Positions 16,906 through 29,824 of a DNA stretch of 58,106 nt are shown here, piece by piece (within the stretch, counting starts at the first letter, position 1; each line of letters starts with the position of its first letter). Location: IMG/VR virus record IMGVR_UViG_3300030329_004093, positions 1-58,106 of that record; one strand, given 5' to 3'. This stretch comes from a virus. Taxonomy: Duplodnaviria; Caudoviricetes. A program made the translations under genes and the position numbers. The notes below the pieces were generated by a model. The model worked only from the letters and a program-made list of their open reading frames with translations, was not told where the DNA came from and did no database searches.

Positions 16906-17620
16906 TAATTTTCTTAGGCCTTTCGGCAGCTTCAATCATATCATCTGTTAATCCTTGAAACTGAACTCCAGTAATCTGCTGAACCTTAGCTGAATTCTTA
17001 TCTTCTAAGTCAAGTATATCAGATAGTTTAAATAGAGCTTTAAGTTTAGTATCATCTTTCTCAGCAGTTTGAGCTACTATTTTAATATTTTCTAATACCA
17101 TTTTTTCACTTATTTCTAACTCTTCTAGTATAGGTTTTAATTCTTCTTTCACAGCAGTCTTAATCCTTTCTGTTTTAATTAAATTAACAGCTTTCATCCT
17201 AGCGTATCGTTTATTATTAGTAGGAAAAGCCTTAACATATGCATCCTCAGGGGATAAACCTTGTGATATATAAGTAACAAACAACTCCTCATTAGCTGTC
17301 ATATTCCTTCTGTTAGCTACTACTTGTTCAGGAGTAGAATTACCTCCAAACGAGTATATATTAGTTCTTCTATCTGTATCCATATAAGTATCTTTTGAGA
17401 CCGTAAAAGTACCAGTACATGTACCTATATAGGCCATATCTCCGTTCTTTCTAAGCATAGTACCTTTACGAAGTATCTGTATAATAGACTCATCATCTGC
17501 AAGTACCCAATCTCCTATATTGCCTTTTCTCCAGTCCTCTACGACTTTAATAGAAGGAGGTACTTCAGATAGAGTTTCATATACAATGTGATTAACTCTA
17601 TTTACCTTGTAAGTTCTCAC
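16895..17620 (-). CDS. Putative terminase small subunit
   Basis: C-terminal half has HTH-like AYVKAFP and helical LKALFKLSDIL segment typical of TerS; upstream of TerL. Confidence 0.55.
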   Translation of the reverse strand: MRTYKVNRVNHIVYETLSEVPPSIKVVEDWRKGNIGDWVLADDESIIQILRKGTMLRKNGDMAYIGTCTGTFTVSKDTYMDTDRRTNIYSFGGNSTPEQVVANRRNMTANEELFVTYISQGLSPEDAYVKAFPTNNKRYARMKAVNLIKTERIKTAVKEELKPILEELEISEKMVLENIKIVAQTAEKDDTKLKALFKLSDILDLEDKNSAKVQQITGVQFQGLTDDMIEAAERPKKINGK

Positions 17621-17856
17621 TAAGATTCTCCAACTTCATATAAGTCACCTAATAGCTTTATATCTTCATCATCCCAATAATCAGCCAAATAATCAAAGTT
17701 AGAATCTAGTGGGAGTGCTTCTCCAACTTCATCTATAACCTCAACTATATATTCAACTGTATCACTATCAGGATTGACAGCTATTTCAAGTGTATATATA
17801 AGAGTACCTTTCTTTAGTTTCTTACGTTCTTTTTTAAGTTTATCTGATTTAATCAT
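17620..17856 (-). CDS. Hypothetical protein, first gene of late operon
   Basis: 78-aa ORF, basic N-terminus and acidic C-terminus; no SD; TATATTAC 3 nt upstream. Confidence 0.5.
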   Translation of the reverse strand: MIKSDKLKKERKKLKKGTLIYTLEIAVNPDSDTVEYIVEVIDEVGEALPLDSNFDYLADYWDDEDIKLLGDLYEVGES

Positions 17857-17859
17857 GTA

Positions 17860-18300
17860 GTAATATAAGAAATGTGAATCAATTTCCCAAAAAAAATTGA
17901 TGAACTCGTATCAAAAGGGCGTAGGTTCCCCCTGATAAAAAAAATTAATTTTAAATTTCACTTAAGCCAGTACTCTAAGACCCATACCTAAGCTTATATT
18001 AAAACAATTTGTGGAACTATCGGGGACAAACCTGAACTCTATTTGAGGGGCTACCCAACTTCTGAACCTCGAAGCAGAACCATTGCAGGGGTACTTAAAG
18101 GCTGATAAATTATAAATATTACAACTTGTTCCGCATCAAATTTACTGTAGCTTAATTTAAAAACCAAATAAAAAAGGTTAACTTTCAAAAATTTGTACAA
18201 AATAATATACACACCAATTATACTTTTAAGGCCACCCAATTTCCCTTTTTTTATATGGGAATTGCGTTATAATTCATTTCAATTAGGAATAGAAAGGACG
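17860..18300. promoter_or_regulatory. Divergent control region between late (minus) and early (plus) blocks
   Basis: Strand switch; AT-rich tracts; TATAAT at ~18267; hairpin CAATTTCCC...GGGAATTG at ~18237-18265. Confidence 0.55.
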
Positions 18301-18304
18301 ACAT

Positions 18305-18646
18305 ATGTCAGATTACATCGCACTTAAACTTGAGAAGAGAGAGTGGACTTCCAAGACAACAGGTGCTTCAGGTTCCACTTATTGCTTCAACAACCAGAAC
18401 AACTCTACTATTAATTTTGGTGGTCATAGCGTATCATTGAGCATACTTGACGGTACTACTCAACAAGCCAAAGAGCCAAAAGTATTTGGTTGGGTTAATG
18501 AGATGACTGATGCACAGTATGAGGCATTTATAGAAGAATATGGTGACACAGTATATATTCATACACCAACAAAAGAAATGATTACTCAACAAGAGTATGA
18601 TGAACTTGGAGTTGAAGAAACTGTACAACCAACAGCATCATTTTAG
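18305..18646 (+). CDS. Hypothetical early protein
   Basis: 113 aa, SD AAAGGA; first plus-strand gene. Confidence 0.6.
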   Translation: MSDYIALKLEKREWTSKTTGASGSTYCFNNQNNSTINFGGHSVSLSILDGTTQQAKEPKVFGWVNEMTDAQYEAFIEEYGDTVYIHTPTKEMITQQEYDELGVEETVQPTASF

Positions 18647-18822
18647 TTAGATGAGCCATACATTGTCATAGGTAGCAGGTGATAGAGTTACCGTTATGTA
18701 TCATCTTTGAGGGTTTAGATAGTGTATTTCCACGCTATCTATTCCCTCGCATACTCTACTATATATATAAATAAACAGCCCCTAAACAAGGGCATATTTA
18801 AAAGAATTAGATGTAAACAATT

Positions 18823-19590
18823 ATGTGGTGGTATCGCATCGCATATAAAACACAAGGATAAGTGTAGTAATACATAAAAGTAGCAACATGTTACAGTGTT
18901 GTAGCGCCTGTAAAGGTCCAGAGATACAAGCCTTGTTCGTTAATGTCTCAAACTCAGTGCCTAACGGTGAGAGTGACAGATGTTAGTACCCAAGATGGTA
19001 ATTGGGTTGAGTGTGGTGACACACAATAGATTAAAAGGTAGGAGTTTAAGCTGAACTATGGTGGTAAGGCTGTTCTCCATTGTTAAGGTTGTATGTCTCG
19101 AGTGATTGAGATGTATATAATTATGCCTGAAACAAATTGTTTGATGATACCAGTCATTAAATAAAGGTATTGAGTGTAGTATTTATTGTCCCAAAAGGAT
19201 AGTAAGCTACTTGTTAAGCACTCGAACCAACTTGCCCGTTAATTAACTTAACTAAATAGCCTAATCGGCTAACAATTAAATGAATAACGATAAAAAACGT
19301 AAAAGACTTAACACGATTAGGAGCATAGGGCTCTAATACCTCACACATTGTGAATGAGGTGCATCAAAGACCACAAGTCGGAGATGTTTTGTGATGAAAG
19401 ACACTAGTAGTGGGTCGCTCCTGCTATCTGCGTTTATTAGTCGCTGAAATAACCTAATCGATAAGAGTGATAGTCTATAACTATTGAGCCTGTTGTGATA
19501 CTAGTGTGCAAACATTAGTGGATACGAGACAAACCCTCGGGAACTTAACTCAAAAGACACAACATTAAAGAGTATAATCTCAACTCTCAA
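18823..19590 (+). ncRNA. GOLLD-like large structured RNA (boundaries approximate)
   Basis: ~770 nt ORF-free with many hairpins. GAGTGTAGTATTTATTGTCCCAAAAGGATAGTAAGCTAC...GCACTC and the 3' end TACTAGTGTGCAAACATTAGTGGATA...AAAGAGTATAATCTCAACTCT resemble my recollection of the conserved GOLLD 3' domain; phage location near a tRNA fits. Confidence 0.65.
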
Positions 19591-19614
19591 ATTTATTTAA
19601 AAGGAGGGAATGCA

Positions 19615-20046
19615 ATGTCAGATAAATGTATCATTTGTGATGTAGATGGCACTGTAGCACTAATGAATGGTAAAAGAACACCATTTGAATGGGATAAAGT
19701 GATGTTAGATGACCCTAATAATTGGGTTATATCATTAATAAGAGGATATTTATCATCAAATCCTGGTGTTAACCTGATATTCTTGTCAGGTAGAAGCGAA
19801 GAATGTTATGGACTAACAGATAAATGGCTTCAAGATTGGTTTGGAGATATTAAATATTCATTATTTATGAGACCACTAGACCAATTGTATGAACCAGATG
19901 CTAAAATTAAGTATGAATTGTATTATAAACATATCAGACCTAATTATAATGTACAATTTGTAGTCGATGACAGAAAACAAGTAGTTGAGATGTGGCGAAG
20001 AGTAGCAGGTCTACCAGTTGCTCAAGTTGCAGAAGGTAACTTTTAA
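19615..20046 (+). CDS. HAD-family polynucleotide 3'-phosphatase (T4 PNKP/PseT phosphatase-domain-like)
   Basis: DVDGT, SGR, LFMRP, K, VVDDRKQVVEMWR, QVAEGNF motifs; no kinase domain. Confidence 0.85.
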   Translation: MSDKCIICDVDGTVALMNGKRTPFEWDKVMLDDPNNWVISLIRGYLSSNPGVNLIFLSGRSEECYGLTDKWLQDWFGDIKYSLFMRPLDQLYEPDAKIKYELYYKHIRPNYNVQFVVDDRKQVVEMWRRVAGLPVAQVAEGNF

Positions 20047-20062
20047 CTAACACGAGGTGAAG

Positions 20063-20188
20063 ATGATTAAATTCTTCAATAAAGACCCATTACATTTAAT
20101 ATCAATATATTTAAATATAGTACTAAATATGTTGTTAATAACAGGTATCATATGTTTATTTAAATGGTGTTGGTCTCTCGTGCTATAA
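20063..20188 (+). CDS. Small membrane peptide (41 aa)
   Basis: SD GAGGTG; hydrophobic MIKFFNKDPLHLISIYLNIVLNMLLITGIICLFKWCWSLVL. Confidence 0.45.
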   Translation: MIKFFNKDPLHLISIYLNIVLNMLLITGIICLFKWCWSLVL

Positions 20189-20272
20189 ATATTGTCTAAT
20201 GACAATGTTGTGGCTCGTAAGACAGAAAGGCTCGTTCTTAATTGAGTGGGCCTTTCAAACATAAGGAGGAAT

Positions 20273-20515
20273 ATGAAATTAAAAAGAAAATTTGAATCAT
20301 TAATCACTATTCACGGTGAGATATTAAACAGCAATTGCCCTGAATGTGATGGAGAAGGTGTATTTTTAGATGATTATACTAATGCAAGTGGTGGTGAAAT
20401 GATACCAAGACTATGTGGATATTGTGATGGTGATGGTGTTATTACTGAAGATAAGGTTGATGCTGTAAATTATGATAAAGAAGGACAACCTCATATAATT
20501 TATAAAAATAAATAA
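20273..20515 (+). CDS. DnaJ-type zinc-finger protein
   Basis: Two CxxCxGxG repeats (CPECDGEG, CGYCDGDG); SD AAGGAGG before ATG 20273. Confidence 0.65.
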   Translation: MKLKRKFESLITIHGEILNSNCPECDGEGVFLDDYTNASGGEMIPRLCGYCDGDGVITEDKVDAVNYDKEGQPHIIYKNK

Positions 20516-20529
20516 AAGGAGTACGAGCT

Positions 20530-20985
20530 ATGGGTATGGATATAAGTGGTAAAAATCCTGTAAGTAAAACAGGTGATTATTTTAGAAATAATTGTTGGTG
20601 GTGGAGACCATTATGGAGTTATTGCTATCATGTAGCACCTGATTTAATAGATGAAGATACATATGTAGGTGGTGGCTATAATGATGGGTGTGGATTAGAT
20701 GCAAAAGGCGCTGCCAAATTAGCTGTCATATTAGAGACTAAAATAGCAGAAGGACATACTAAAATATGGAAAAAAGAAAGAGATTTATATCTTGATTCTT
20801 TAGAAGATGAGAATTGTGGTGTATGTAATAATAACAATAGAGGGCATAAGAAAAAGAAAGATTGCTTTGCTTGTAAAGGTAAAGGAACAAGAGATGCCTG
20901 GGAGAAATCTTATCCATTTGATGTAGAGAATGTAGAGAATTTTGCTAAATTTCTTATAGATAGTGGTGGATTTGAAATATGGTAA
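20530..20985 (+). CDS. Conserved phage protein with CxxC zinc ribbon
   Basis: YFRNNCWWWRPLW, CGVC...CFACKGKG, GGFEIW C-terminus. Confidence 0.65.
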   Translation: MGMDISGKNPVSKTGDYFRNNCWWWRPLWSYCYHVAPDLIDEDTYVGGGYNDGCGLDAKGAAKLAVILETKIAEGHTKIWKKERDLYLDSLEDENCGVCNNNNRGHKKKKDCFACKGKGTRDAWEKSYPFDVENVENFAKFLIDSGGFEIW

Positions 20986-20994
20986 AGTAATTAT

Positions 20995-21065
20995 AGCGGA
21001 GGAGTGAAACGGTTCACGCTTGGCTCATAACCAAGAAATATTGGGTTCGACTCCCATCTCCGCAA
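20995..21065 (+). tRNA. tRNA-Met(CAT), initiator-like, atypical
   Basis: Acceptor (A)GCGGAG/CTCCGC(A), D arm GTGA/TCAC, anticodon arm CTTGG-CTCATAA-CCAAG, T loop TTCGACT; no encoded CCA. Confidence 0.85.
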
Positions 21066-21660
21066 CAAAATTGAGTATGATTAGCGTCATACAAAATAGT
21101 TGTCAGGTGGACAAAATACTCACGACTGTTAAACATTGGTAGTCCTAGGATGCCATAGAGTACATCTCACGTATTGCCACAACTCCTGAAACAGGATGAA
21201 CTAACTACCTAGACGATTTATCGACTAAACTGTTAGCAGTCTTTAAGCACAGATATGTGTAAACCGCAGTTGATTCCTTCTTAGACTGGCTGTGGACTAG
21301 AATTATATAATTGAGAGTCAAGATATAAGCCTTGTTCAATATTACGAGATTAGTATATTGATGAAAAATGGTGTAGTGTACTTAATTGCCCACCTGTAAT
21401 GATGAAGTTGGGTCATGACCTGAATGCCAGTTGAGCATAGTATTTTCAACTCTGGTCATCAGATAAAGACTGGCAGCCATGCAATAAAACTAGACACGAG
21501 TGGCGGTCTAGCACGACTCTCATATTATTGAGAGCCAATAACTGGTCCTCCTCAAGAGCCACCTCCAACAAAGCTGAGGTGAGAGGGTAAATAAGTCCTT
21601 ATGAAGTACCTGAAAATGAACTGGTGAAGAAGGCAAAGGAATATGTGAGGCTCTCATACA

Positions 21661-21883
21661 TTTGAGGGAGAGTATATATCGTAAGAATATACAACAATGT
21701 TAATAAGACCCAAGTTCACAGATATTATTAGCTTTGTGTTTCACTCCCTCAATAAACTTATAAACCGAGGGATAGGAGGGAGATATACCAGGTACAGAGG
21801 AAGCGCTACTTAGTAGCAAACCAGAAGTCGCTGTATATCGAGGAAAAAGTGTAGGTTTATATAAATTAGTTTGAGGGAGAGTA
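21661..21883 (+). repeat. 14-nt direct repeat TTTGAGGGAGAGTA (21661-21674 and 21870-21883)
   Basis: Exact match read from sequence. Confidence 0.8.
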
Positions 21884-21963
21884 ACGTGGATAGAGAGAAC
21901 TTAGGTTCTGTGAGGGGAGGGTGCAAATCCTTCGTGTAAAACTAATAAAATTGTATACAACAG

Positions 21964-22031
21964 ATAAAGCAGGTGAGCTTGGATAGCACTCATCGCGTTG
22001 AGGAGGGTTCGATTCCTTTAACCTGCTTTAT
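21964..22031 (+). ncRNA. Minimal tRNA-like element
   Basis: 11-bp closing stem ATAAAGCAGGT/ACCTGCTTTAT, T arm GAGGG-TTCGATT-CCTTT, small arms GCTTGGATAGC and CTCATCGCGTTGAG. Confidence 0.5.
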
Positions 22032-22166
22032 TGATTAAAGAATTACAGGTAGTTGCCGTAATGAATCTAGAGTCCTGTAATAACAGAGATAGTTTAGAAA
22101 TAAACTGTAATGTCAATGAGGGTAGGTAGTCGGATACTTACCCTCAAAATTTAAAAGGAGAGTCAC

Positions 22167-22469
22167 ATGATAAAGTTAAAAGATGTATTAGATTTTATCT
22201 TAGCAACTAAAGACAACGAAGTTCTTGTTGAAATAAATGATGCTGTTAAAGATAAATTTAAAACTAACTCCAGTTATCTTAAATGTAAGCTAATGCCTGG
22301 TGATAAAGTTAGAATAAATGGTAGTGGTAAAATAGAAAAAGGCACTATTATTAAAGTTAATAGAACAAGAGCTTTAGTTAAATGCTGGAATGAAGAAAAA
22401 CAATGGAATGTAAGATATAGCGTTCCATTTACAATGATAACAAGGGAGGCAAATGGCAAAGAAATATAA
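22167..22469 (+). CDS. Hypothetical protein with SH3/KOW-like C-terminus
   Basis: PGDKVRI...GTIIKVNRTRALV; SD AAGGAG. Confidence 0.6.
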   Translation: MIKLKDVLDFILATKDNEVLVEINDAVKDKFKTNSSYLKCKLMPGDKVRINGSGKIEKGTIIKVNRTRALVKCWNEEKQWNVRYSVPFTMITREANGKEI

Positions 22470-22737
22470 TTTATTGAACCCAGAAGAAAGAACTGCTTAC
22501 TGGACTGAGTTTGTTAAAAAGAGATTAATAGGTAAGACTATTGTAGATGTAGAATATTTAACTAATAGTGAATGTAAAGATTTAGACTGGTATTGTAGAC
22601 CAGTAGCATTCAAATTAAATGATGGTTCTTGGGTATATTCTCAAAAAGATGATGAAGGTAATGATGGTGGTGCTTTATACTATCATCAAGAAGATGATTG
22701 TACAGTATTTCCTGTATTGGGAAGAGAGGATGGATAA
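22453..22737 (+). CDS. Conserved phage hypothetical protein
   Basis: LIGKTIVDVEY...DDEGNDGGAL motif; SD GGAGG. Confidence 0.6.
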   Translation: MAKKYNLLNPEERTAYWTEFVKKRLIGKTIVDVEYLTNSECKDLDWYCRPVAFKLNDGSWVYSQKDDEGNDGGALYYHQEDDCTVFPVLGREDG

Positions 22738-22907
22738 TGGTTACAGAAAATCAAATAAAAGACCAAATAGAAATAGCTATAACCAAAGCAGAACAAATGG
22801 AATATTGGGACGGAGAGCCTGATTTACAATATAATGATGGTTATATAAGAGCTTTGAGATGGGTTATAGGTAAAGCTTATTCACTTTATAATAAGGAGGA
22901 TATATAA
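22737..22907 (+). CDS. Hypothetical protein
   Basis: Start MVTENQ via TAATG; GYIRALRWVIG motif. Confidence 0.5.
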   Translation: MVTENQIKDQIEIAITKAEQMEYWDGEPDLQYNDGYIRALRWVIGKAYSLYNKEDI

Positions 22908-23077
22908 TGATAAATGAAGAACAATGGAATGAATATAGAGACGTACAAGATAGTGGTATGTTTAACATGTTCAGCCCAAGAGCAAGAGAAATGACATCTT
23001 TAACAAAAGATGAATGGATATATATCCTTAAAAATTATAATAAACTAAAAAAACAATATGAAGGAGACGAGTCGTGA
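22907..23077 (+). CDS. Small DUF5049-like phage protein (56 aa)
   Basis: Manual translation MINEEQWNEYRDVQDSGMFNMF...; SD AAGGAGG. Confidence 0.55.
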   Translation: MINEEQWNEYRDVQDSGMFNMFSPRAREMTSLTKDEWIYILKNYNKLKKQYEGDES

Positions 23078-23595
23078 AATCATTATCAAAGCAACAACGT
23101 GATTACTTTATTGATAGAATAAGAGGTGAAATAAATAAAGAAATATCAATACTAGAGCAAATACATGCAACTGGTATAGAAACAGTAGCTAATAAACAAT
23201 ACAAGTCTTATTTAAAAGAGACTGGCTTAGGTAAAATCTTTAAAGAATATGAAGCAGCTGAAACTAAATGGAATAAAGTAAGAGATAGAATGCAGACTAT
23301 ATGCAAAGCATTACATGAGAAGACTGAATATCCAGGTAAAGATAGTTATTTTCATGCACCATATGATAGTCAAGGTGTTGAAAAGTTCTTAAGAGAGATA
23401 TGCAATGCATTAGCAAGAGATAATTTCATTAATACTCCTAAAGGTAAAAGATTAAAAGAGCTGGAAGATAAAAGAACAGCTGCAATCGATACTGTTATGG
23501 GTATGACTGAAACTGAACCTCTTGTTCAAGCTCTTAATAAAATCTTTAAAGGCACTAATGTTCCTTTATTAGGAGGTAGCAATGGCCAAAAGTAA
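23074..23595 (+). CDS. Hypothetical helical protein
   Basis: 173-aa ORF, GTG start with SD GGAG. Confidence 0.6.
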   Translation: MKSLSKQQRDYFIDRIRGEINKEISILEQIHATGIETVANKQYKSYLKETGLGKIFKEYEAAETKWNKVRDRMQTICKALHEKTEYPGKDSYFHAPYDSQGVEKFLREICNALARDNFINTPKGKRLKELEDKRTAAIDTVMGMTETEPLVQALNKIFKGTNVPLLGGSNGQK

Positions 23596-23752
23596 AATAA
23601 ATACTTGGGTAAGTTATCTTTGGAGAATGAATAAAGATGAAAGCGATGAAGTATTGTGCGAAATAAGAAACTTTTTATTTCAATTTAGAAACAATGCTCA
23701 AAAAGAATATTCATTAATTAAGGAGGATTCTAATGGCAAAGAAGATGAGTAA
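23582..23752 (+). CDS. Hypothetical protein (56 aa)
   Basis: SD AGGAGG before ATG 23582; fills the gap in the operon. Confidence 0.45.
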   Translation: MAKSKINTWVSYLWRMNKDESDEVLCEIRNFLFQFRNNAQKEYSLIKEDSNGKEDE

Positions 23753-23972
23753 ACAAGAGAAAGTCTTAATGTATCTTCAAACTTATGGAAGTATTACTCC
23801 TCAGGATGCTTATGAGCTCTTTCAATCCATGCGATTGGGAGCTCTAATCCATAACTTGAGACATAACGAGCCTTATTATAATATAACATCTAAGTTAGAA
23901 GGTAAAGCTGGTTATGCAAGATACACACTTGAAGATGGAGTATATAAGGATTATGATTCGGATAATTCATAA
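23733..23972 (+). CDS. Winged helix-turn-helix DNA-binding protein
   Basis: QEKVLMYLQTYGSITPQDAYELF..MRLGALIHNLR...YARYTL, typical small phage wHTH. Confidence 0.7.
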   Translation: MAKKMSKQEKVLMYLQTYGSITPQDAYELFQSMRLGALIHNLRHNEPYYNITSKLEGKAGYARYTLEDGVYKDYDSDNS

Positions 23973-24013
23973 TTTTAACGTAAATTACAAGGCTGTCAAA
24001 TAAAGGAGAATAA

Positions 24014-24760
24014 ATGAAAACATTACTCATTGACCTTGAGAATGGATATAAATCTATCGGCGGTAAAGACACAATAGAAGAGAAATTTGGGTTACCATTA
24101 TTAAACTTCAATGACTTTACATCCTTTAGGAATTTTATAAGCCAGCTCTGGTCTCGTAAAATGATTGAAAAAGATGTTAAAGTAGGTAATATATCTATTC
24201 CACAGAAATCATACCAGATAACAGCAAAAGATGGTGTTGAGGTGGATTGTATGGTTATAGATACAGGTAGTGAAATGGCTAAGAAATATGCTAGAGAGTT
24301 AAAAGGTAAAGCTGAATCTTTACAACTTAAACAATGGGGTAAGCTTAAAGATACTCTTGATAATTTCTTTTCATTTACTAACGCTATACCTGCTAGTTTA
24401 ATAGTAAATTGCCATTCTAAAATGCAAGAAGACCATGAGAATGGTGTAGTTAGAGTTATGCCTTATATCGAAGGTTCTACTAAAGTAGATGTCGGTAAAT
24501 GGTTTGATTTTGTCTTTTATACAAAAGTTCATAAAAGTAAAGATGGCTCACGTAAATATATGTGGGTAACAGCTAGAGATGAACATTTTTGTCACGCTAA
24601 AGACAGAACACAGTTATTAGATACTGAAATACCTCAAGATTATGAGATAGTATTTAATGCTGTAAAGGAAAAAGGATGGGATACTGCTAAGGTTCTTATA
24701 ATAGGAGAACCAGGTAGTGGTAAAACATTGAGTTTGAAAACATTAACAAAAGTCAAGTAA
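24014..24760 (+). CDS. AAA_24/Sak4-like ATPase, apparently circularly permuted
   Basis: TLLIDLENG, Walker B MVIDTG, WGKL, NCH, AKDR motifs; Walker A GEPGSGKT at the extreme C-terminus. Confidence 0.8.
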   Translation: MKTLLIDLENGYKSIGGKDTIEEKFGLPLLNFNDFTSFRNFISQLWSRKMIEKDVKVGNISIPQKSYQITAKDGVEVDCMVIDTGSEMAKKYARELKGKAESLQLKQWGKLKDTLDNFFSFTNAIPASLIVNCHSKMQEDHENGVVRVMPYIEGSTKVDVGKWFDFVFYTKVHKSKDGSRKYMWVTARDEHFCHAKDRTQLLDTEIPQDYEIVFNAVKEKGWDTAKVLIIGEPGSGKTLSLKTLTKVK

Positions 24761-24770
24761 AGGAGAATAA

Positions 24771-25289
24771 ATGGCTATAACAGTAACTAAGTCAAGTGGT
24801 GGATATGATGAAGGTTGGAAAACTGTAACTATATCTAGCGCTGTAAAGGGTGATTTTAGTGGTTCTAAATATATAGACCTTTTCTTTGAAACTTATCCAG
24901 AAACTCTTAAATGTAGAATCTGGGAAGCTAGAAATAAAGATGGAGAGGAATTTTCTGTATCAAATATGGTAAGATATTCTAATCCAACTGTATTGGAAGA
25001 AATGGACAAAGATGGAACAACAGCTGCAAGTCTTGATGATTCGCCAACAGGTTTAAAAGGCAAATCTCTTCAAGTGTTATTCTATAAAAAGGATAATGGA
25101 TATTCTGATATATCTCAAAAAGTAGCTCCAGCTGAACCATTTCAAAACATAGTAGATAATTTTACCGAAGATAGAATATCTAGGATAAAACAATCTGCAG
25201 AGAAATATCAAGCTAACAGAAAGGTAGTATCTAATGGCGTAGAAACAACTGATTCAACATCAGATTCTACTAATGATATGCCTTGGTAA
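24771..25289 (+). CDS. Putative single-stranded DNA-binding protein
   Basis: Follows Sak4-like gene; beta-rich N-terminus; acidic tail ending DMPW. Confidence 0.6.
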   Translation: MAITVTKSSGGYDEGWKTVTISSAVKGDFSGSKYIDLFFETYPETLKCRIWEARNKDGEEFSVSNMVRYSNPTVLEEMDKDGTTAASLDDSPTGLKGKSLQVLFYKKDNGYSDISQKVAPAEPFQNIVDNFTEDRISRIKQSAEKYQANRKVVSNGVETTDSTSDSTNDMPW

Positions 25290-25299
25290 TAATAATTAA

Positions 25300-25360
25300 A
25301 GTAAAGGTAGTAGCTAACTTATACTGCTTTAAATGAGAGAACAAGAACTCAGCCTTTACT
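25300..25360 (+). promoter_or_regulatory. Structured leader upstream of primase-helicase
   Basis: Closing stem AGTAAAGG/CCTTTACT with two inner hairpins, ending just before the SD. Confidence 0.35.
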
Positions 25361-25378
25361 CTAATAAGGAGAAATAAT

Positions 25379-27130
25379 ATGGTAAGAGAATTTGCATTCG
25401 GACTATCAAATAGGCATCACTTTTTTCCTAGCGATAATTCAGTAAAATGGGAAAATGTTGCTAAAGATACATTTCTATCCTTATATGGCTATGATGAAAC
25501 AGTAAAAGAATACTTCGATAAAAACAAAACACTATCAGGCTTTGATGGCAATATATATATGCCTAAAGAGTTTATGTTAGATGTGGACGGTTCTGAAATA
25601 AAAGAAGCTCAAGATAAAACTATTAAATTAGTTAGCATCTTAGATGATTTAAAAGTACCTTGCAATATTTATTTTAGTGGTAGAGGATTTCATATTGGAA
25701 TACCAGATACTGCTTTTAAATGGAGACCAGGTAAGAATTTACATCTTAGAGTTAAAGATGAGCTTGATAAAAGAGGAGTATACGAATACGCTGATGTTTC
25801 AGTAACTGATAAAACTAGAATAATTAGATTAAATAATACTTTAAATTGTAAATCTAGATTATGGAAGATTTATATAAAGAAAGAAGAGTTATATAATCTA
25901 AATGCTTTAGGGATATCAGCCTTAGCAAACAAACCAAGAATGATAAATATACCTCAATTACAATGTGAGCCAGTATTTGATGTAACTGAAAGGGAGATTA
26001 AAAAGCAAACTATCAAGTTTAAAGAAACTATAGGTAGTGAGCCAGACCCTATGTTATATCCATGCATACAAACAATGTTAGGTGGTTCTTCTTATGGAGG
26101 GAGACATGCAACAGCATTACGTTTAGGTGCTTGGCTTAGATGGAGGTATCCAGAGAATGTAGTAAGATTAATCATGGAAGACTGGCGTAAAAGGGTAAGT
26201 ACTTTAGAACATCCTTTTAAAGAAGATGAAATGAATAGACTTATTACTGATTGTTATAAAGGTCATGGAGGTAGTGGATATAGATATGGCTGCAATGATA
26301 AAATAATGGATAAACATTGTAATTCTACGTGTACTTTATTTAAAGCGAAAAAATCTCAAGGTGTCATGAGTGCTGAAGATATGGAAGAAAATTTAATAAG
26401 TTTTCTAAAAGGAGATACTAAACCTATAAATCTAGGTAGATTATATGGTAAAGACTTTCCTATATATCCTGGCGAATTAGTAGTAATCCAAGCTCCACCT
26501 AAATCTATGAAAACTATGTTAGTTCAAAACTGGGTTAATTCCCTTAAAAGACCTACATACTTTCTTGAAATGGAAATGTCTGCAAGACAAATGTGGCAAA
26601 GATTCATTCAAATAGAAGAAGGATGGAGTGAGGAGCAACTAAGAGAGCACTATGCTAATACTAATTATAAACTAGCTAATAAATTTAAATGGTTAAACAT
26701 GGATTATCAACCTTGTTTTGCTATTGAATTAGAAAAGCGGTTAAGTATATTGCCAGTTAAACCAGAAATTGTAGTTATAGACCATATGGGATTATTACTC
26801 TCTAAACATAGAGACCTTAATCTTAAAATGGAAGAAATATCTGGAGCATTAACTGAAGCTGCAATAAAGAATAATATAGTAGTTATAGCAATATGTGAGA
26901 TTACTAAGCAAGCAATGACTGAAGGTATGGGAATATCTTCTGTAAGAGGTTCATTTAGAATCGCTTACAATGCAAGTAAAATAATGTCTCTAACAACAGC
27001 TAAAGATACTGAAGGTAATGTTAATACTATGGTAATAAAGACTGAAGCTAATAGAGAAAGAGGTTCACTTGATGTATTGCTTAAAGTAAATGGTTTAAGG
27101 ATAGATACTAAAGGAGGTGAATATGCCTAA
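25379..27130 (+). CDS. Primase-helicase fusion (AEP primase + Cys-rich domain + SF4/DnaB-like helicase)
   Basis: AEP motifs LDVD, FSGRGFH, D..RIIRL; Cys cluster; helicase YPGELVVI-APPKSMKT, LEMEMS, VVIDH. Confidence 0.8.
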   Translation: MVREFAFGLSNRHHFFPSDNSVKWENVAKDTFLSLYGYDETVKEYFDKNKTLSGFDGNIYMPKEFMLDVDGSEIKEAQDKTIKLVSILDDLKVPCNIYFSGRGFHIGIPDTAFKWRPGKNLHLRVKDELDKRGVYEYADVSVTDKTRIIRLNNTLNCKSRLWKIYIKKEELYNLNALGISALANKPRMINIPQLQCEPVFDVTEREIKKQTIKFKETIGSEPDPMLYPCIQTMLGGSSYGGRHATALRLGAWLRWRYPENVVRLIMEDWRKRVSTLEHPFKEDEMNRLITDCYKGHGGSGYRYGCNDKIMDKHCNSTCTLFKAKKSQGVMSAEDMEENLISFLKGDTKPINLGRLYGKDFPIYPGELVVIQAPPKSMKTMLVQNWVNSLKRPTYFLEMEMSARQMWQRFIQIEEGWSEEQLREHYANTNYKLANKFKWLNMDYQPCFAIELEKRLSILPVKPEIVVIDHMGLLLSKHRDLNLKMEEISGALTEAAIKNNIVVIAICEITKQAMTEGMGISSVRGSFRIAYNASKIMSLTTAKDTEGNVNTMVIKTEANRERGSLDVLLKVNGLRIDTKGGEYA

Positions 27131-27611
27131 AAGAAGTCTAAACCAAATAAGTAGTGATATTATGTTAGTACAAAATAGTTTCGAGCTAACCGAGCAAGAA
27201 ATAGACGAGCAACTAGATATACTACATACTGAACTACATGAAAAAGAAAATGGAGTTTACTGGTTTTATAGGAATCTCGATAGTAAAATTGATTTAGCTA
27301 AAGAGTATAAAGAAAAAGCAGATGCAGTAATTAAAAAGCTTAAATATACTCAAGAAAAACTAAAGAAATTAGTATTAGAAGCTTATTCAGCTAGTAGTCA
27401 ACTCCCATCTCATGATGAGTTCAATCCTATTAAGATAATAGAAATGGGTAAAGTAGAGATAATAGATGAATCTAAAATACCAGATGAATATTATATTGAG
27501 AAGATTGAGACCAGATTAGATAAACGTAGAATACTTGAGGAATTAAAAGAAGGAGTAGAGATTCCTGGAGTAACATTAAGGAAAAACAAACATGTCAGGG
27601 GGTTAAAATGA
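27123..27611 (+). CDS. Siphovirus Gp157-like protein
   Basis: Coiled coil followed by VEIIDESKIPDEY...LDKRRILEELKEGVEIPGVTL; SD GGAGGTG. Confidence 0.75.
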   Translation: MPKRSLNQISSDIMLVQNSFELTEQEIDEQLDILHTELHEKENGVYWFYRNLDSKIDLAKEYKEKADAVIKKLKYTQEKLKKLVLEAYSASSQLPSHDEFNPIKIIEMGKVEIIDESKIPDEYYIEKIETRLDKRRILEELKEGVEIPGVTLRKNKHVRGLK

Positions 27612-28405
27612 TAAATCCTTATGGAGAAATAAGAAAAGTACCTTTAGATTATCAAGGTATTACATCTTCAGCTTATGCAGTACAAAGACAAGAGCTAAAA
27701 GATGAGAAACTTATGTGGAAAGAATGTGGAGTAGTTGGTAGTAACTATCTTCTTGTTCCTAACACAGAGGTAAGGGACCTTGCAAATGAAATAGCATCAG
27801 AATCTAACCATGAATGGGAGCCTATGAAAACTTTCTTTGATGGTAAAAGATTTATTTATTTCATGCAATCTAAGTCAGAGACTACTCAAATAAAAGAGGG
27901 TGATGATGTTGCTCTTGGTATGGGTTTCTGGAATAGTTATGACGGTTCTACAGCGTTACAATTTAGAACGTTTCTTGTAAGATTATTATGTACTAATGGT
28001 ATGATAACTAAAGACTTCATGAATTTAATGAGGTTTAAACATAATAATAAATCAGAAGGTTACGAGGACCAGATAATAAACGCTGCTAAAGTAGTTGACA
28101 ACTGTGGAGAGGATATTGAAACAGTTGCACAAAGGATGAGGAAAATGGTAGAAACTCCACTTAATTTAAATGAACTAGCTTATATGAGAAATCATGACTT
28201 AGCTCATTTACCTGTTACATTATGGGGTAAGATTAGTACACACTTTATGAATAAAGACCGTGAGAAAATCTTAAATAATGATGTAAGTATGTGGGATTTC
28301 TACAACGCATGTACGGATGTACTATGGCACGATGAGAAACCTACTATGGCCTCATTTGAGCATAATCAGATAATAACTGATAACTTGCTTCAAGCTATGG
28401 CTTAG
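27608..28405 (+). CDS. DUF932-like phage protein
   Basis: GVVGSNYLLVPN, NSYDGS, RLLCTNGM, WDFYNACT motifs. Confidence 0.75.
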   Translation: MINPYGEIRKVPLDYQGITSSAYAVQRQELKDEKLMWKECGVVGSNYLLVPNTEVRDLANEIASESNHEWEPMKTFFDGKRFIYFMQSKSETTQIKEGDDVALGMGFWNSYDGSTALQFRTFLVRLLCTNGMITKDFMNLMRFKHNNKSEGYEDQIINAAKVVDNCGEDIETVAQRMRKMVETPLNLNELAYMRNHDLAHLPVTLWGKISTHFMNKDREKILNNDVSMWDFYNACTDVLWHDEKPTMASFEHNQIITDNLLQAMA

Positions 28406-28420
28406 GAGGAACGCACCAAA

Positions 28421-28454
28421 AGGAGAGGGGGTACTCGTCCTACCTCCTCTCTTT
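28421..28454 (+). terminator. Stem-loop after DUF932-like gene
   Basis: GGAGAGGGGGTA...TACCTCCTCTCT followed by TT. Confidence 0.5.
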
Positions 28455-28472
28455 AACTTAAAAGGAGATAAT

Positions 28473-28637
28473 ATGGCAAAAAAGAAAAAAAGTGAAATAG
28501 AAGAAATATATGAGGAATTAGATGAACATGCAGAAGCGTTAGAGATGTTCGCTGGTGATATTAATAAAATAGTACCTAAATTAGAAGCAATTGATGCTGC
28601 TATGAAAAGAATAATGAAAAGATTGGGGATGAGTTAA
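28473..28637 (+). CDS. Small coiled-coil protein (54 aa)
   Basis: Manual ORF with SD AAGGAG. Confidence 0.5.
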   Translation: MAKKKKSEIEEIYEELDEHAEALEMFAGDINKIVPKLEAIDAAMKRIMKRLGMS

Positions 28638-28936
28638 TGAAAAAACCAACTATAAAAGAACTTAAAACAGAGATAGATAAAGAAAGAGAAAGACTTGATT
28701 TAACAGTAAGGCAACTTAATTTTAGCACAAGAATGTTAGATAGTATAGGTATTGCTTTTAGTAATTATGTTAAGTATAAAGGTGATGAGCAGAACTTTAA
28801 AGATTATTTGGAAAATAATAAAAACTTACATAAATTAAACAAGGAAGAGGATGAAGACAGAAAAAAAGGACATCTTGAAGGAATTAATACTGTATCAGAT
28901 AAGGAAGTACGGGAAGAAAGCTCTGGAAAAGAATAA
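28637..28936 (+). CDS. Hypothetical protein
   Basis: Coupled ORF (TAATG). Confidence 0.5.
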   Translation: MKKPTIKELKTEIDKERERLDLTVRQLNFSTRMLDSIGIAFSNYVKYKGDEQNFKDYLENNKNLHKLNKEEDEDRKKGHLEGINTVSDKEVREESSGKE

Positions 28937-28938
28937 TA

Positions 28939-29187
28939 TTGATTGGAGAAAATATGTTCAAGAAATGTCCTAAATGTGGGTGGAGTATGCCTAAATATCT
29001 TGAAAACATAAGTTCACCTTATACTAAATATGAAATAGCATGGGCTTATACACCCACTGAAAATAAAGATAAATGGCATGCTTTAAAAAAAGCAAGAATA
29101 CGTGCAGAAATAGAGAAAAGGAGACTCGATGAATTGGAAATTTTGGAAAAAGAAACCAAAGCAACCAAAGGAATTAAAACCTTTTAA
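28939..29187 (+). CDS. Small CxxC protein
   Basis: CPKCG; probable start MFKKC after SD GGAG. Confidence 0.45.
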   Translation: MIGENMFKKCPKCGWSMPKYLENISSPYTKYEIAWAYTPTENKDKWHALKKARIRAEIEKRRLDELEILEKETKATKGIKTF

Positions 29188-29308
29188 AAAGAAAGATACT
29201 GTAGACATGAAATTAGCCAAGATTGTTGAAGAACAGAATCGGTTAAATATGAGAATGGATGGTATAGATAATGTTTTTAAAAGAATAAGAAACCGAATAG
29301 GAATATAA
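29129..29308 (+). CDS. Small basic protein (59 aa)
   Basis: Manual ORF MNWKFWKKKP...RIGI with SD AGGAG; C-terminus resembles 28473..28637. Confidence 0.4.
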   Translation: MNWKFWKKKPKQPKELKPFKKKDTVDMKLAKIVEEQNRLNMRMDGIDNVFKRIRNRIGI

Positions 29309-29547
29309 TGAGTAATGTAAATGCACTTATAGAAAGAGCTGAAAATCTAGTTGAATTCGCAAGACATTCTAATGATAATGAGCTTGACATTGTAGTTAAA
29401 GAGATTGTAAATTTCGTACAAGAACAAAGATTAGAAATGCTGTCTGAAGTTCTACAATTAATTAAACAAAGAGGTCAATGTGAAGCCATCGTCAAGGAAA
29501 GGCAAGGGGAGGAGACTTCAAAACTTTCTAAAGGAAGAACTCTATAA
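29308..29547 (+). CDS. Hypothetical protein
   Basis: TAATG-coupled ORF. Confidence 0.4.
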   Translation: MSNVNALIERAENLVEFARHSNDNELDIVVKEIVNFVQEQRLEMLSEVLQLIKQRGQCEAIVKERQGEETSKLSKGRTL

Positions 29548-29824
29548 ATATTTCCCTTCATTAAGAGAAGGTGATATAAAAACTGCTGTGATGGGAGAGT
29601 CTGGTGAAGACATCATTCTCTCTCCAGCAGCCAGAGATTTAATACCATTTAGTTTTGAATGTAAGAATCAAGAAAGACTAAATATATGGGAATCTCTAAC
29701 TCAAGCCGAAGAAAATTCAAACAATTACACACCAGCTGTAGTATTTAAAAGAAATCGAACTAAAACATATATAACTCTTGAATTAGAAGAGTTTCTTAAA
29801 ATTATAGGAGAGCTAAATGAATAG
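29480..29824 (+). CDS. Holliday junction resolvase-like PD-(D/E)xK nuclease
   Basis: SRKGKGRRLQ, GEDI, FSFECKNQE, PAVVFKRNR motifs. Confidence 0.8.
   Translation: MKPSSRKGKGRRLQNFLKEELYKYFPSLREGDIKTAVMGESGEDIILSPAARDLIPFSFECKNQERLNIWESLTQAEENSNNYTPAVVFKRNRTKTYITLELEEFLKIIGELNE

Follow-up and report, generated by a model that had tools for sequence, protein, structure and literature searches.

The window analysed here is a complete virus record of 58,106 bp, from a podovirus-like phage whose portal is of the P22 type and whose capsid protein is of the SU10 type (this protein with a single distant match, at 23.5% identity), and its source phage was matched in marine metagenome runs. Its early and replication genes lie on the + strand, from about 18300 to 29800, and inside this co-directional block, directly downstream of a tRNA-Met gene, a non-coding stretch at 21065–22166 carries an array of about nine structured RNA modules, which we named M1 to M9. 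Every part of this stretch has homologues in related IMG/VR phage contigs, as separate pieces, and each module is an evolutionary unit of its own, closed by its own helix. No open reading frame (ORF) longer than 45 aa occurs within 21065–22166 on either strand, and homologues keep no open frame: indels of 1 or 2 nt and compensatory changes at paired positions separate them from one another. The G+C content of the stretch is 0.36–0.46 compared to 0.30–0.33 in the flanking genes, and its predicted fold is more stable on the + strand (−298.2 kcal/mol) than on the − strand (−264.9 kcal/mol). A blastn search of a cultured-phage collection with the 1102-nt array gave no matches. The modules, with z-scores of folding energy where listed, are:

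21069–21314, + strand: M1, a multi-helix module of ~250 nt.
21312–21522, + strand: M2, a scaffold with closing stem UGAGAGUC/GACUCUCA, 5′ arm AAGAUAUAAGCC, a 3′ hairpin and swappable cargo.
21529–21656, + strand: M3, a rod built of P1, a conserved internal loop, P2, a loop and P3, with two cargo sites, both filled in the window.
21662–21752, + strand: M4, hairpin-closed by UUGAGGGAG/CUCCCUCAA (z = −4.79).
21759–21861, + strand: M5, a second invariant scaffold, UAUAAACCGAGG ... GGAGGGAGAU (cargo) AUCGAGGAAAAAGUGUAGGUUUAUA, with two cargo sites.
21865–21946, + strand: M6, a T-loop-like hairpin (GGGUGCAAAUCC) with a D-loop-like GGAUAG, standing alone in the window.
21964–22031, + strand: M7, tRNA-like, with an acceptor-like stem, a D-like arm, a short arm with the loop UCGCGU and a T-arm, GGUUCGAUUCC (z = −3.35).
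22042–22081, + strand: M8, a hairpin of ~40 nt with a covarying stem, the conserved loop half GGUNGUUGCCGUAAURAA and the palindromic hexamer UCUAGA at 22066–22071.
22088–22146, + strand: M9 and its leader, a conserved linker (22088–22116) followed by a strong hairpin (22117–22146) with no U-tract (z = −5.12).

Modules are permuted, nested and exchanged among related phages

We gathered 68 related IMG/VR loci through the neighbouring gene of a 151-aa protein and extended the comparison with BLAST and nhmmer. Among these relatives (numbered with an L below), the modules turn up in different subsets, singly in short intergenic gaps, or within the tip of a second module. Their order is permuted: M3 precedes M1 in L005, and M8 precedes M5 in L029/L030 and L004 and follows it in the window, L003 and L005. 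Nesting was found for M6, which sits at the tip of M3 in L020 and L026, for the interior of the window's M5, which lies inside M3 of L035, L089 and L094 and inside M1 of L292, and for an M8-like element inside M5 of L105. An earlier note on this DNA, made from its inverted repeats, had described ten consecutive self-closed RNA units behaving like cassettes, and the relatives bear this out, as modules are gained, lost, reordered and nested between them. What that picture lacked were invariant scaffolds carrying variable cargo and the covarying palindromic loop described below for M8. M2, M3 and M5 are near-invariant scaffolds with interchangeable structured cargo at their tips. Arrays elsewhere reach ~2 kb; the gene-free stretches around M3 in L122 and L154, of 1866 and 1983 nt, contain no Rfam family at the gathering threshold.

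An exact 18-mer of the M3 3′ arm identified at least 119 IMG/VR stretches, and from all loci together we compiled 116 distinct M3 variants of 77–206 nt, which share ~45 near-invariant nucleotides and accommodate at the cargo sites inserts that can be as small as a 6-nt loop or exceed 100 nt of structured RNA. In the alignment of 68 members, 86.5% of the cells are paired and 19 of 23 pairs are double-changed, a level of covariation reached by none of 500 shuffles, which take no account of phylogeny; slid registers were also far off. The closing stem P1 contains 31 G·U against a single A·C, indicating that the + strand is the folded one and that M3 acts as RNA. A covariance model built from this alignment (R1) detected one copy in the window, at 21523–21665 with 56.3 bits (next best 11.8), and contigs usually carry one or two M3 copies. 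M2 as a diverged M3 was rejected, as R1 finds only this one M3 in the window; a conserved core, GAGAG(C/U)C, is common to M2 and M3.

M3 copies usually lie between co-directional genes. The ORF downstream begins a median of 34 nt away and the one upstream ends a median of 28 nt away; distances within 60 nt separate 62 of 104 units from the following ORF and 71 of 102 from the preceding stop. Their neighbours are varied, the genes downstream falling into 58 different clusters among 104, often with an SSB-like gene upstream and a primase-helicase gene downstream. In the window the gap between these two genes (25290–25378), the site of M3 in many relatives, holds no M3 (9.5 bits with R1) and contains a different small hairpin-rich element with UGAGAG...CUCA. 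A general association of M3 with tRNA genes was rejected, only 2 of 115 units lying within 200 nt of one; in L082 and L140 the M3 unit directly abuts the same tRNA-Met. Among 185,579 species genomes the M3 18-mer had ten exact matches, nine of them chance occurrences inside genes and one a real M3. The latter (L308) is on a 26.7-kb contig of a Flavobacteriales metagenome-assembled genome, which may be a phage contig binned with that genome or a prophage; it is a possible host lead, and from this single contig we draw no host conclusion.

The second invariant scaffold, M5, was found in 21 distinct variants of 85–197 nt with invariant arms. Its cargo recurs in M3 cargo on the same strand in 8 of 22 cargo regions, compared to 0 of 22 in the reverse-complement control, and some of the matches are 100% identical over 34 nt. 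The one-sided result shows that cargo is exchanged between the two scaffolds in one orientation. For M2, the homologues in L035, L003 and L175 retain both ends and differ in cargo, and the 3′ hairpin carries compensatory changes in L175. One M2 cargo contains a 10-nt palindrome, GGUCAUGACC at 21410–21419, which reads GACUGCAGUC in L003; the search for further variants returned the same two only.

The M8 loop carries a changing palindrome

The M8 loop consists of 16–18 conserved nucleotides followed by a six-nucleotide palindrome that differs between homologues. When the closing stem was the sole criterion for membership, 23 of the 24 variants retained had a palindrome, compared to 1.4% of background hexamers, and the sole non-palindromic variant is without the usual stem sequence. 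Six palindromes occur in stem-closed variants (UCUAGA, CCAUGG, CUGCAG, UCAUGA, GAUAUC and CUAUAG), and variants with weaker stems add CUCGAG and GCUAGC. In an alignment of 22 sequences all 66 palindrome cells are complementary, all three palindrome pairs are double-changed and five of eight stem pairs covary. A wider metagenome scan for M8 returned mostly chance matches, 83 of 107 variants having no closing stem. Since adjacent nucleotides cannot pair within one chain, the partner of the M8 palindrome has to be a second copy, and M8 shows the pattern expected of a symmetric intermolecular kissing loop, as judged from sequence. We therefore predict that M8 mediates dimerisation through a symmetric kissing loop. 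A known loop of this type is that of the HIV-1 dimerisation initiation site.

Kretsch et al. (Nature 2025) applied the same reasoning to the intermolecular bridges OLE L9.3 and GOLLD L21a, and their structures confirmed it. There, too, a loop switches between palindromes while its surroundings stay fixed, which is explicable only by pairing with a second copy. M8 differs in being a hexamer with at least 6 to 8 palindromes, on a hairpin of ~40 nt that also stands alone between genes, and in being recognised from comparative data. In five further loci (L334, L324, L339, L340 and L331), M8 is part of another conserved stretch, non-coding, ~380 nt long and without an Rfam match, which may be a further structured RNA sharing the M8 dimerisation hairpin.

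The remaining modules

In M1, the first two units of the earlier note fall together: with 21242–21311, which the note had assigned to no unit, they belong to one module of ~250 nt, which also includes two further hairpins. The inverted repeats proposed as their closing stems are present, but the helices supported by covariation are different ones. The M1 alignment comprises nine sequences with 73% column identity, and RNAalifold predicts 50 pairs, 16 of them with compensatory changes. One M1 hairpin loop contains the palindrome CCUAGG (21144–21149), which is invariant on a covarying stem among 17 distinct nhmmer rows. This loop, and the M2-cargo palindrome with its two variants, lend weaker support to self-pairing than M8 does. 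The 3′ end of M1, just before M2, is an invariant sigma-70-like TAGACT-18-TATAAT (21282–21311), which may act as a promoter inside the array or simply belong to a conserved hairpin. A 15-mer scan for M1 produced mostly chance matches; a few loci contain a true M1 and the rest served as unrelated controls.

M4 and M6 begin with the same 14 nt, UUUGAGGGAGAGUA. The one M4 homologue (L104) has both ends conserved and a variable middle. The closing stem of M6 differs from context to context with pairing kept, its T-like stem covaries, and its minimum free energy is −19.5 on the + strand compared to −8.0 on the − strand. In M7, the middle arm consists of four base pairs and a loop of 6 nt, as opposed to the 7-nt anticodon loop of a tRNA cloverleaf, the homologue in L075 shows compensatory changes, and the two 3′ hairpins also occur inside an M3 unit of L096. 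Neither M6 nor M7 is called as a tRNA by ARAGORN, which calls one tRNA, and the best Rfam hit of M7 is tRNA-Sec, with 18.5 bits where 47 are required. Between the end of M9 and the start codon of the next ORF lie 20 nt, and the M9 homologues in L005 and L003 show compensatory stem changes.

Inverted repeats and folding of the array

All ten inverted repeats by which the earlier note had delimited its units are present exactly where it had placed them, eight of them perfect and two with one non-Watson-Crick position. Folding compared to dinucleotide shuffles (200 per unit) gave z-scores of −0.9 to −5.1, and both ends are paired in the unit's own minimum free energy fold in 8 of 10 units; as these scores are modest, little weight can be placed on folding energy by itself. 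When the region is tiled with non-overlapping units bounded by perfect 8-bp repeats, the covered fraction is 0.683, compared to 0.243 ± 0.131 in 300 dinucleotide shuffles, none of which reaches 0.683, and among 48 other 1102-nt tiles of this AT-rich phage genome a single one has a tiling of 0.755. Taken from the sequence alone, the array signal is suggestive and falls short of decisive.

The description of separate, self-closed structured-RNA modules on the + strand proved accurate, as did the statement that their interiors are unrelated. The idea of a shared stem beginning with TGAG did not hold, since among the 68 aligned M3 members that position carries U in 19 and A in 44. With TGAG varying within the largest family, TTGAG...CTCA as a common cut site is unsupported. 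The possibility that the units are short ORFs or terminators found no support either: the longest ORF has 45 aa, and of the five terminator-like sites in 17500–23000 none lies on the + strand inside 21065–22166.

Relation to known RNA families

Against the 4227 covariance models of Rfam 15, searched at E ≤ 10 over 20400–22800, only tRNA-Met passes; seven other matches fall far below their cut-offs, none is to GOLLD or ROOL, and no module matches a family, with ribozymes, riboswitches, Y RNA, SRP, 6S and tmRNA among those covered, in agreement with the earlier note, which had not recognised the array as a described system. At the gathering threshold, the search of 46 related loci returned only GOLLD in three and tRNA in three, and the array of L047 gave nothing relevant at E ≤ 10. 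Relative to Rfam 15, M1–M9 are new motif families. Hairpin, pistol and twister-sister ribozymes, riboswitches, SRP, RNase P fragments, Y RNA, the k-turn and the 11-nt tetraloop receptor were considered for M3 and M8 and rejected, as there was no Rfam match and the motifs picked out by eye misfit the pairing register.

The kind of object is already known, namely phage structured RNA of unknown function with kissing-loop self-association. The available part of Fremin et al. 2023 (PMC10690425) reports 8495 unnamed structured-RNA candidates from IMG/VR intergenic regions, which come from the same data source and are objects of the same kind, and M3 may be among them. That part contains no mention of modular swapping, nesting or palindromic loops, on which no dedicated literature search was made. 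An exact literature search for two M3 motifs, the only search for a prior description, gave one unrelated match, in a conifer chloroplast paper. According to bioRxiv 10.64898/2026.07.01.735769, small marine-phage RNA motifs self-assemble, manA into a 60-mer cage and EGFOA into oligomers. These resemble the modules in being short structured RNAs of phages or marine metagenomes with probable RNA-only assemblies, but they are other motifs, and Rfam gave no manA match here.

Genomic setting and RNA-library contigs

Upstream of the array lie the following features:

19166–19586, + strand: 3′ domain of GOLLD RNA (Rfam RF02032, 192.7 bits against a cut-off of 150).
19615–20046: 143-aa ORF with only the phosphatase domain of polynucleotide kinase-phosphatase (PF25109, 1.7e-40), of the RNA-repair type.
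20530–20985: 151-aa Cys-rich protein with 68 IMG/VR relatives.
20996–21064, + strand: tRNA-Met (CAT), directly 5′ of the array (ARAGORN; Rfam tRNA 46.2 bits against a cut-off of 29).

GOLLD thus lies 1.5 kb upstream of the array, in a non-coding stretch of about 18647–19614 whose segment 18647–19165 probably holds its variable 5′ domain, and the polynucleotide kinase-phosphatase domain gene stands between GOLLD and the tRNA-Met. The 151-aa Cys-rich protein matches no Pfam or PHROG family, and its Atlas clusters are all annotated as hypothetical; the cluster to which it belongs has 3567 members, mostly viral, and in many loci RNA arrays occur within 4 kb of its gene. No relatives of the downstream ORF at 22167–22469 were found. 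The phage encodes a Sak4-like annealase and an SSB-like protein. A search of the record for TROVE (Ro60) and RtcB gave no match, while the controls responded. Further downstream, 29999–57986 on the − strand is occupied by very large ORFs (3743, 1758 and 1199 aa), and no Pfam family was found for the 1199-aa, 521-aa and 492-aa ORFs. GAGG is over-represented in 21065–22150, with a density of 12.9 per kb compared to 3.9 per kb in the genes that follow.

Four metatranscriptome runs from two studies were available as assembled contigs. RNA-library contigs cover GOLLD (18835–19560) in all four runs, with the flanking ORFs uncovered. M2 is covered in two runs, one from each study, by contigs matching 21311–21498 without mismatch and 21303–21451, the former a 191-nt contig on M2 alone whose edge at 21311 may reflect strain differences that interrupted the assembly, instead of an RNA end. 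M1, M3–M9 and the flanking ORFs are uncovered in these runs save for a short fragment at ~20584–20616 and cover at 22726–22981, which says nothing either way; for the fragment in the upstream ORF (~20584–20616), the record continues into unlike sequence on both sides. The RNA-library cover is a hint of expression only.

Discussion

We give about an even chance to the reading that 21065–22166 is an island whose structured RNAs are co-transcribed, recombine and associate with themselves, acting alongside GOLLD as dimers or assemblies of higher order. The array would be transcribed with its flanking genes and each module would fold independently, and it is plausible that single modules are freed by host RNases at the A/U-rich linkers. 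The T4 tRNA region encodes RNAs C and D, structured non-tRNA RNAs that are co-transcribed with tRNAs, in an early or middle transcript, and freed by host RNases. It differs from the present locus, which has a single tRNA and whose M3 is rarely near tRNAs in relatives; to our knowledge, scaffold-and-cargo swapping is undescribed for T4. The invariant scaffold arms would provide short homology for cassette exchange between co-infecting phages, and recombination at these arms is the simplest account of the shuffling; the phage has the Sak4-like annealase and the SSB-like protein noted above. The invariant internal loops imply a conserved binding partner, which might be the ribosome or a protein of host or phage. 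Self-pairing is implied by the palindromic loops, which would join RNA copies into dimeric or higher-order assemblies, objects of the same kind as GOLLD. We regard as possible, though rather doubtful, that the modules form a combinatorial kit, in which the scaffolds M2, M3 and M5 display swappable cargo and are recombined at their arms while kissing loops of M8 and M1 join them into RNA-only assemblies. If true, phages would possess a natural equivalent of engineered RNA scaffolds, related in kind to the cages of GOLLD and ROOL but modular.

Several observations weigh against an island of self-associating RNAs. The z-scores of single units are modest, and the shuffle control behind the covariation counts ignores phylogeny. 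M3, M5 and M8 often stand alone between ORFs, which also fits a cis-acting mRNA element. A general enrichment of palindromic hexamers across arrays was rejected, with 314 observed compared to 420 ± 21.5 in shuffles, so that the self-pairing signal rests on M8. The RNA-library contigs carry no information on ends, strand or processing, may stem from DNA carry-over and leave most modules uncovered.

The solitary copies are the starting point for the view that the modules are cis-acting early-mRNA elements (RNase III-type processing hairpins, 3′-end stabilisers, or pause, termination or antitermination signals) of which the window holds an unusual pile-up, a view that we consider unlikely. M3 fills short gaps between co-directional ORFs beside many different genes, with a closing stem of up to 13 pairs stacked on two more helices and, in a few copies, a U run following; M8 occurs alone in a 101-nt intergenic gap, and the end of M9 so close to a start codon would suit such a role. 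T7-type RNase III hairpins are long, have conserved internal loops and lie between co-directional early genes, about ten per genome. M3 resembles them where it stands alone between ORFs, but it is present in one or two copies per genome, accepts large structured inserts and takes part in gene-free tandem arrays, and its ~45 near-invariant nucleotides go far beyond the needs of a cleavage hairpin. A tandem series of about nine different modules over 1.1 kb free of ORFs, with arrays of ~2 kb elsewhere, is likewise hard to reconcile with such signals, as are the scarcity of M3 per contig and the lack of any + strand terminator-like site in the region, and a covarying palindromic loop has no role in them.

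Alternatively, the whole 1.1 kb could form a single giant ornate RNA, new but of the same kind as GOLLD and ROOL, with the modules as its domains, which would fold and oligomerise as one molecule. We think this improbable, even though the phage setting beside a tRNA and GOLLD and the size of M1, a ~250-nt multi-helix domain, would suit it. The array shares with GOLLD and ROOL that it is phage-encoded, non-coding, highly structured and near a tRNA, with self-association deduced from changing palindromic loops like those of the GOLLD and OLE chain bridges, and variability also exists within GOLLD, in its 5′ region and in a linker. The array, however, matches neither model at E ≤ 10 and has no fixed architecture, and its oligomerisation is predicted only; the order of modules is permuted, M3, M5 and M8 occur alone, and no long-range helix between modules was found beyond that of M1 itself.

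The proposal of the earlier note that the units serve as decoys or sponges, which it named beside antitoxins and guide mimics, is compatible with an island of self-associating RNAs, yet we lend it little credence. Tips resembling the tRNA elbow in M6 and M7 would absorb anticodon nucleases or tRNA-processing enzymes, or GAGG-rich loops similar to Shine-Dalgarno sequences would hold ribosomes. The T-arm- and D-loop-like features of M6 and M7 point in this direction, as do the RNA-repair type kinase-phosphatase domain gene between GOLLD and the tRNA and the count of GAGG plus GGAG, 20 observed compared to 8.6 ± 2.9 in shuffles. Bacterial Y RNAs such as YrlA combine a protein-binding stem with a tRNA-like domain, and have Ro60 as partner and often RtcB. 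An M3 with an M6- or M7-type tip (L020, L026, L096) has a similar plan, a conserved stem plus a tRNA-elbow-like domain; it differs in that there is no Rfam Y RNA match and no TROVE or RtcB in the phage, and most M3 tips are not tRNA-like. The rarity of M3 near tRNAs (2 of 115) and the failure of M7 in the tRNA models also speak against decoys. GOLLD is reported to pull down ribosomes, as cited in Kretsch et al. (Nature 2025), which counts in favour of this proposal.

Finally, that the conserved arms are sites in DNA (a replication origin, recombination sites or a miniature mobile element) is very improbable: the frequent position of M3 between SSB-like and primase-helicase genes and the invariant arms around variable inserts, near-identical in phages whose proteins are 35–55% identical, would fit, but the 31 G·U against one A·C in P1 mark selection on one strand, the cargo is structured and covarying and is shared between scaffolds in a single orientation, the closing stem is extended by a variable inverted repeat instead of a direct target duplication, and RNA-library contigs are present.

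Phage-encoded structured RNAs such as GOLLD, ROOL and manA were recently shown to build RNA-only cages. The locus described here contributes several new small motifs with many natural variants, among them M8, which in ~40 nt carries a clear signature of dimerisation; they offer compact structural targets and co-occurring partners for studies of GOLLD. Their cassette-like exchange between phages, in genomes that also carry GOLLD, provides an analogue of domain shuffling at the level of RNA.

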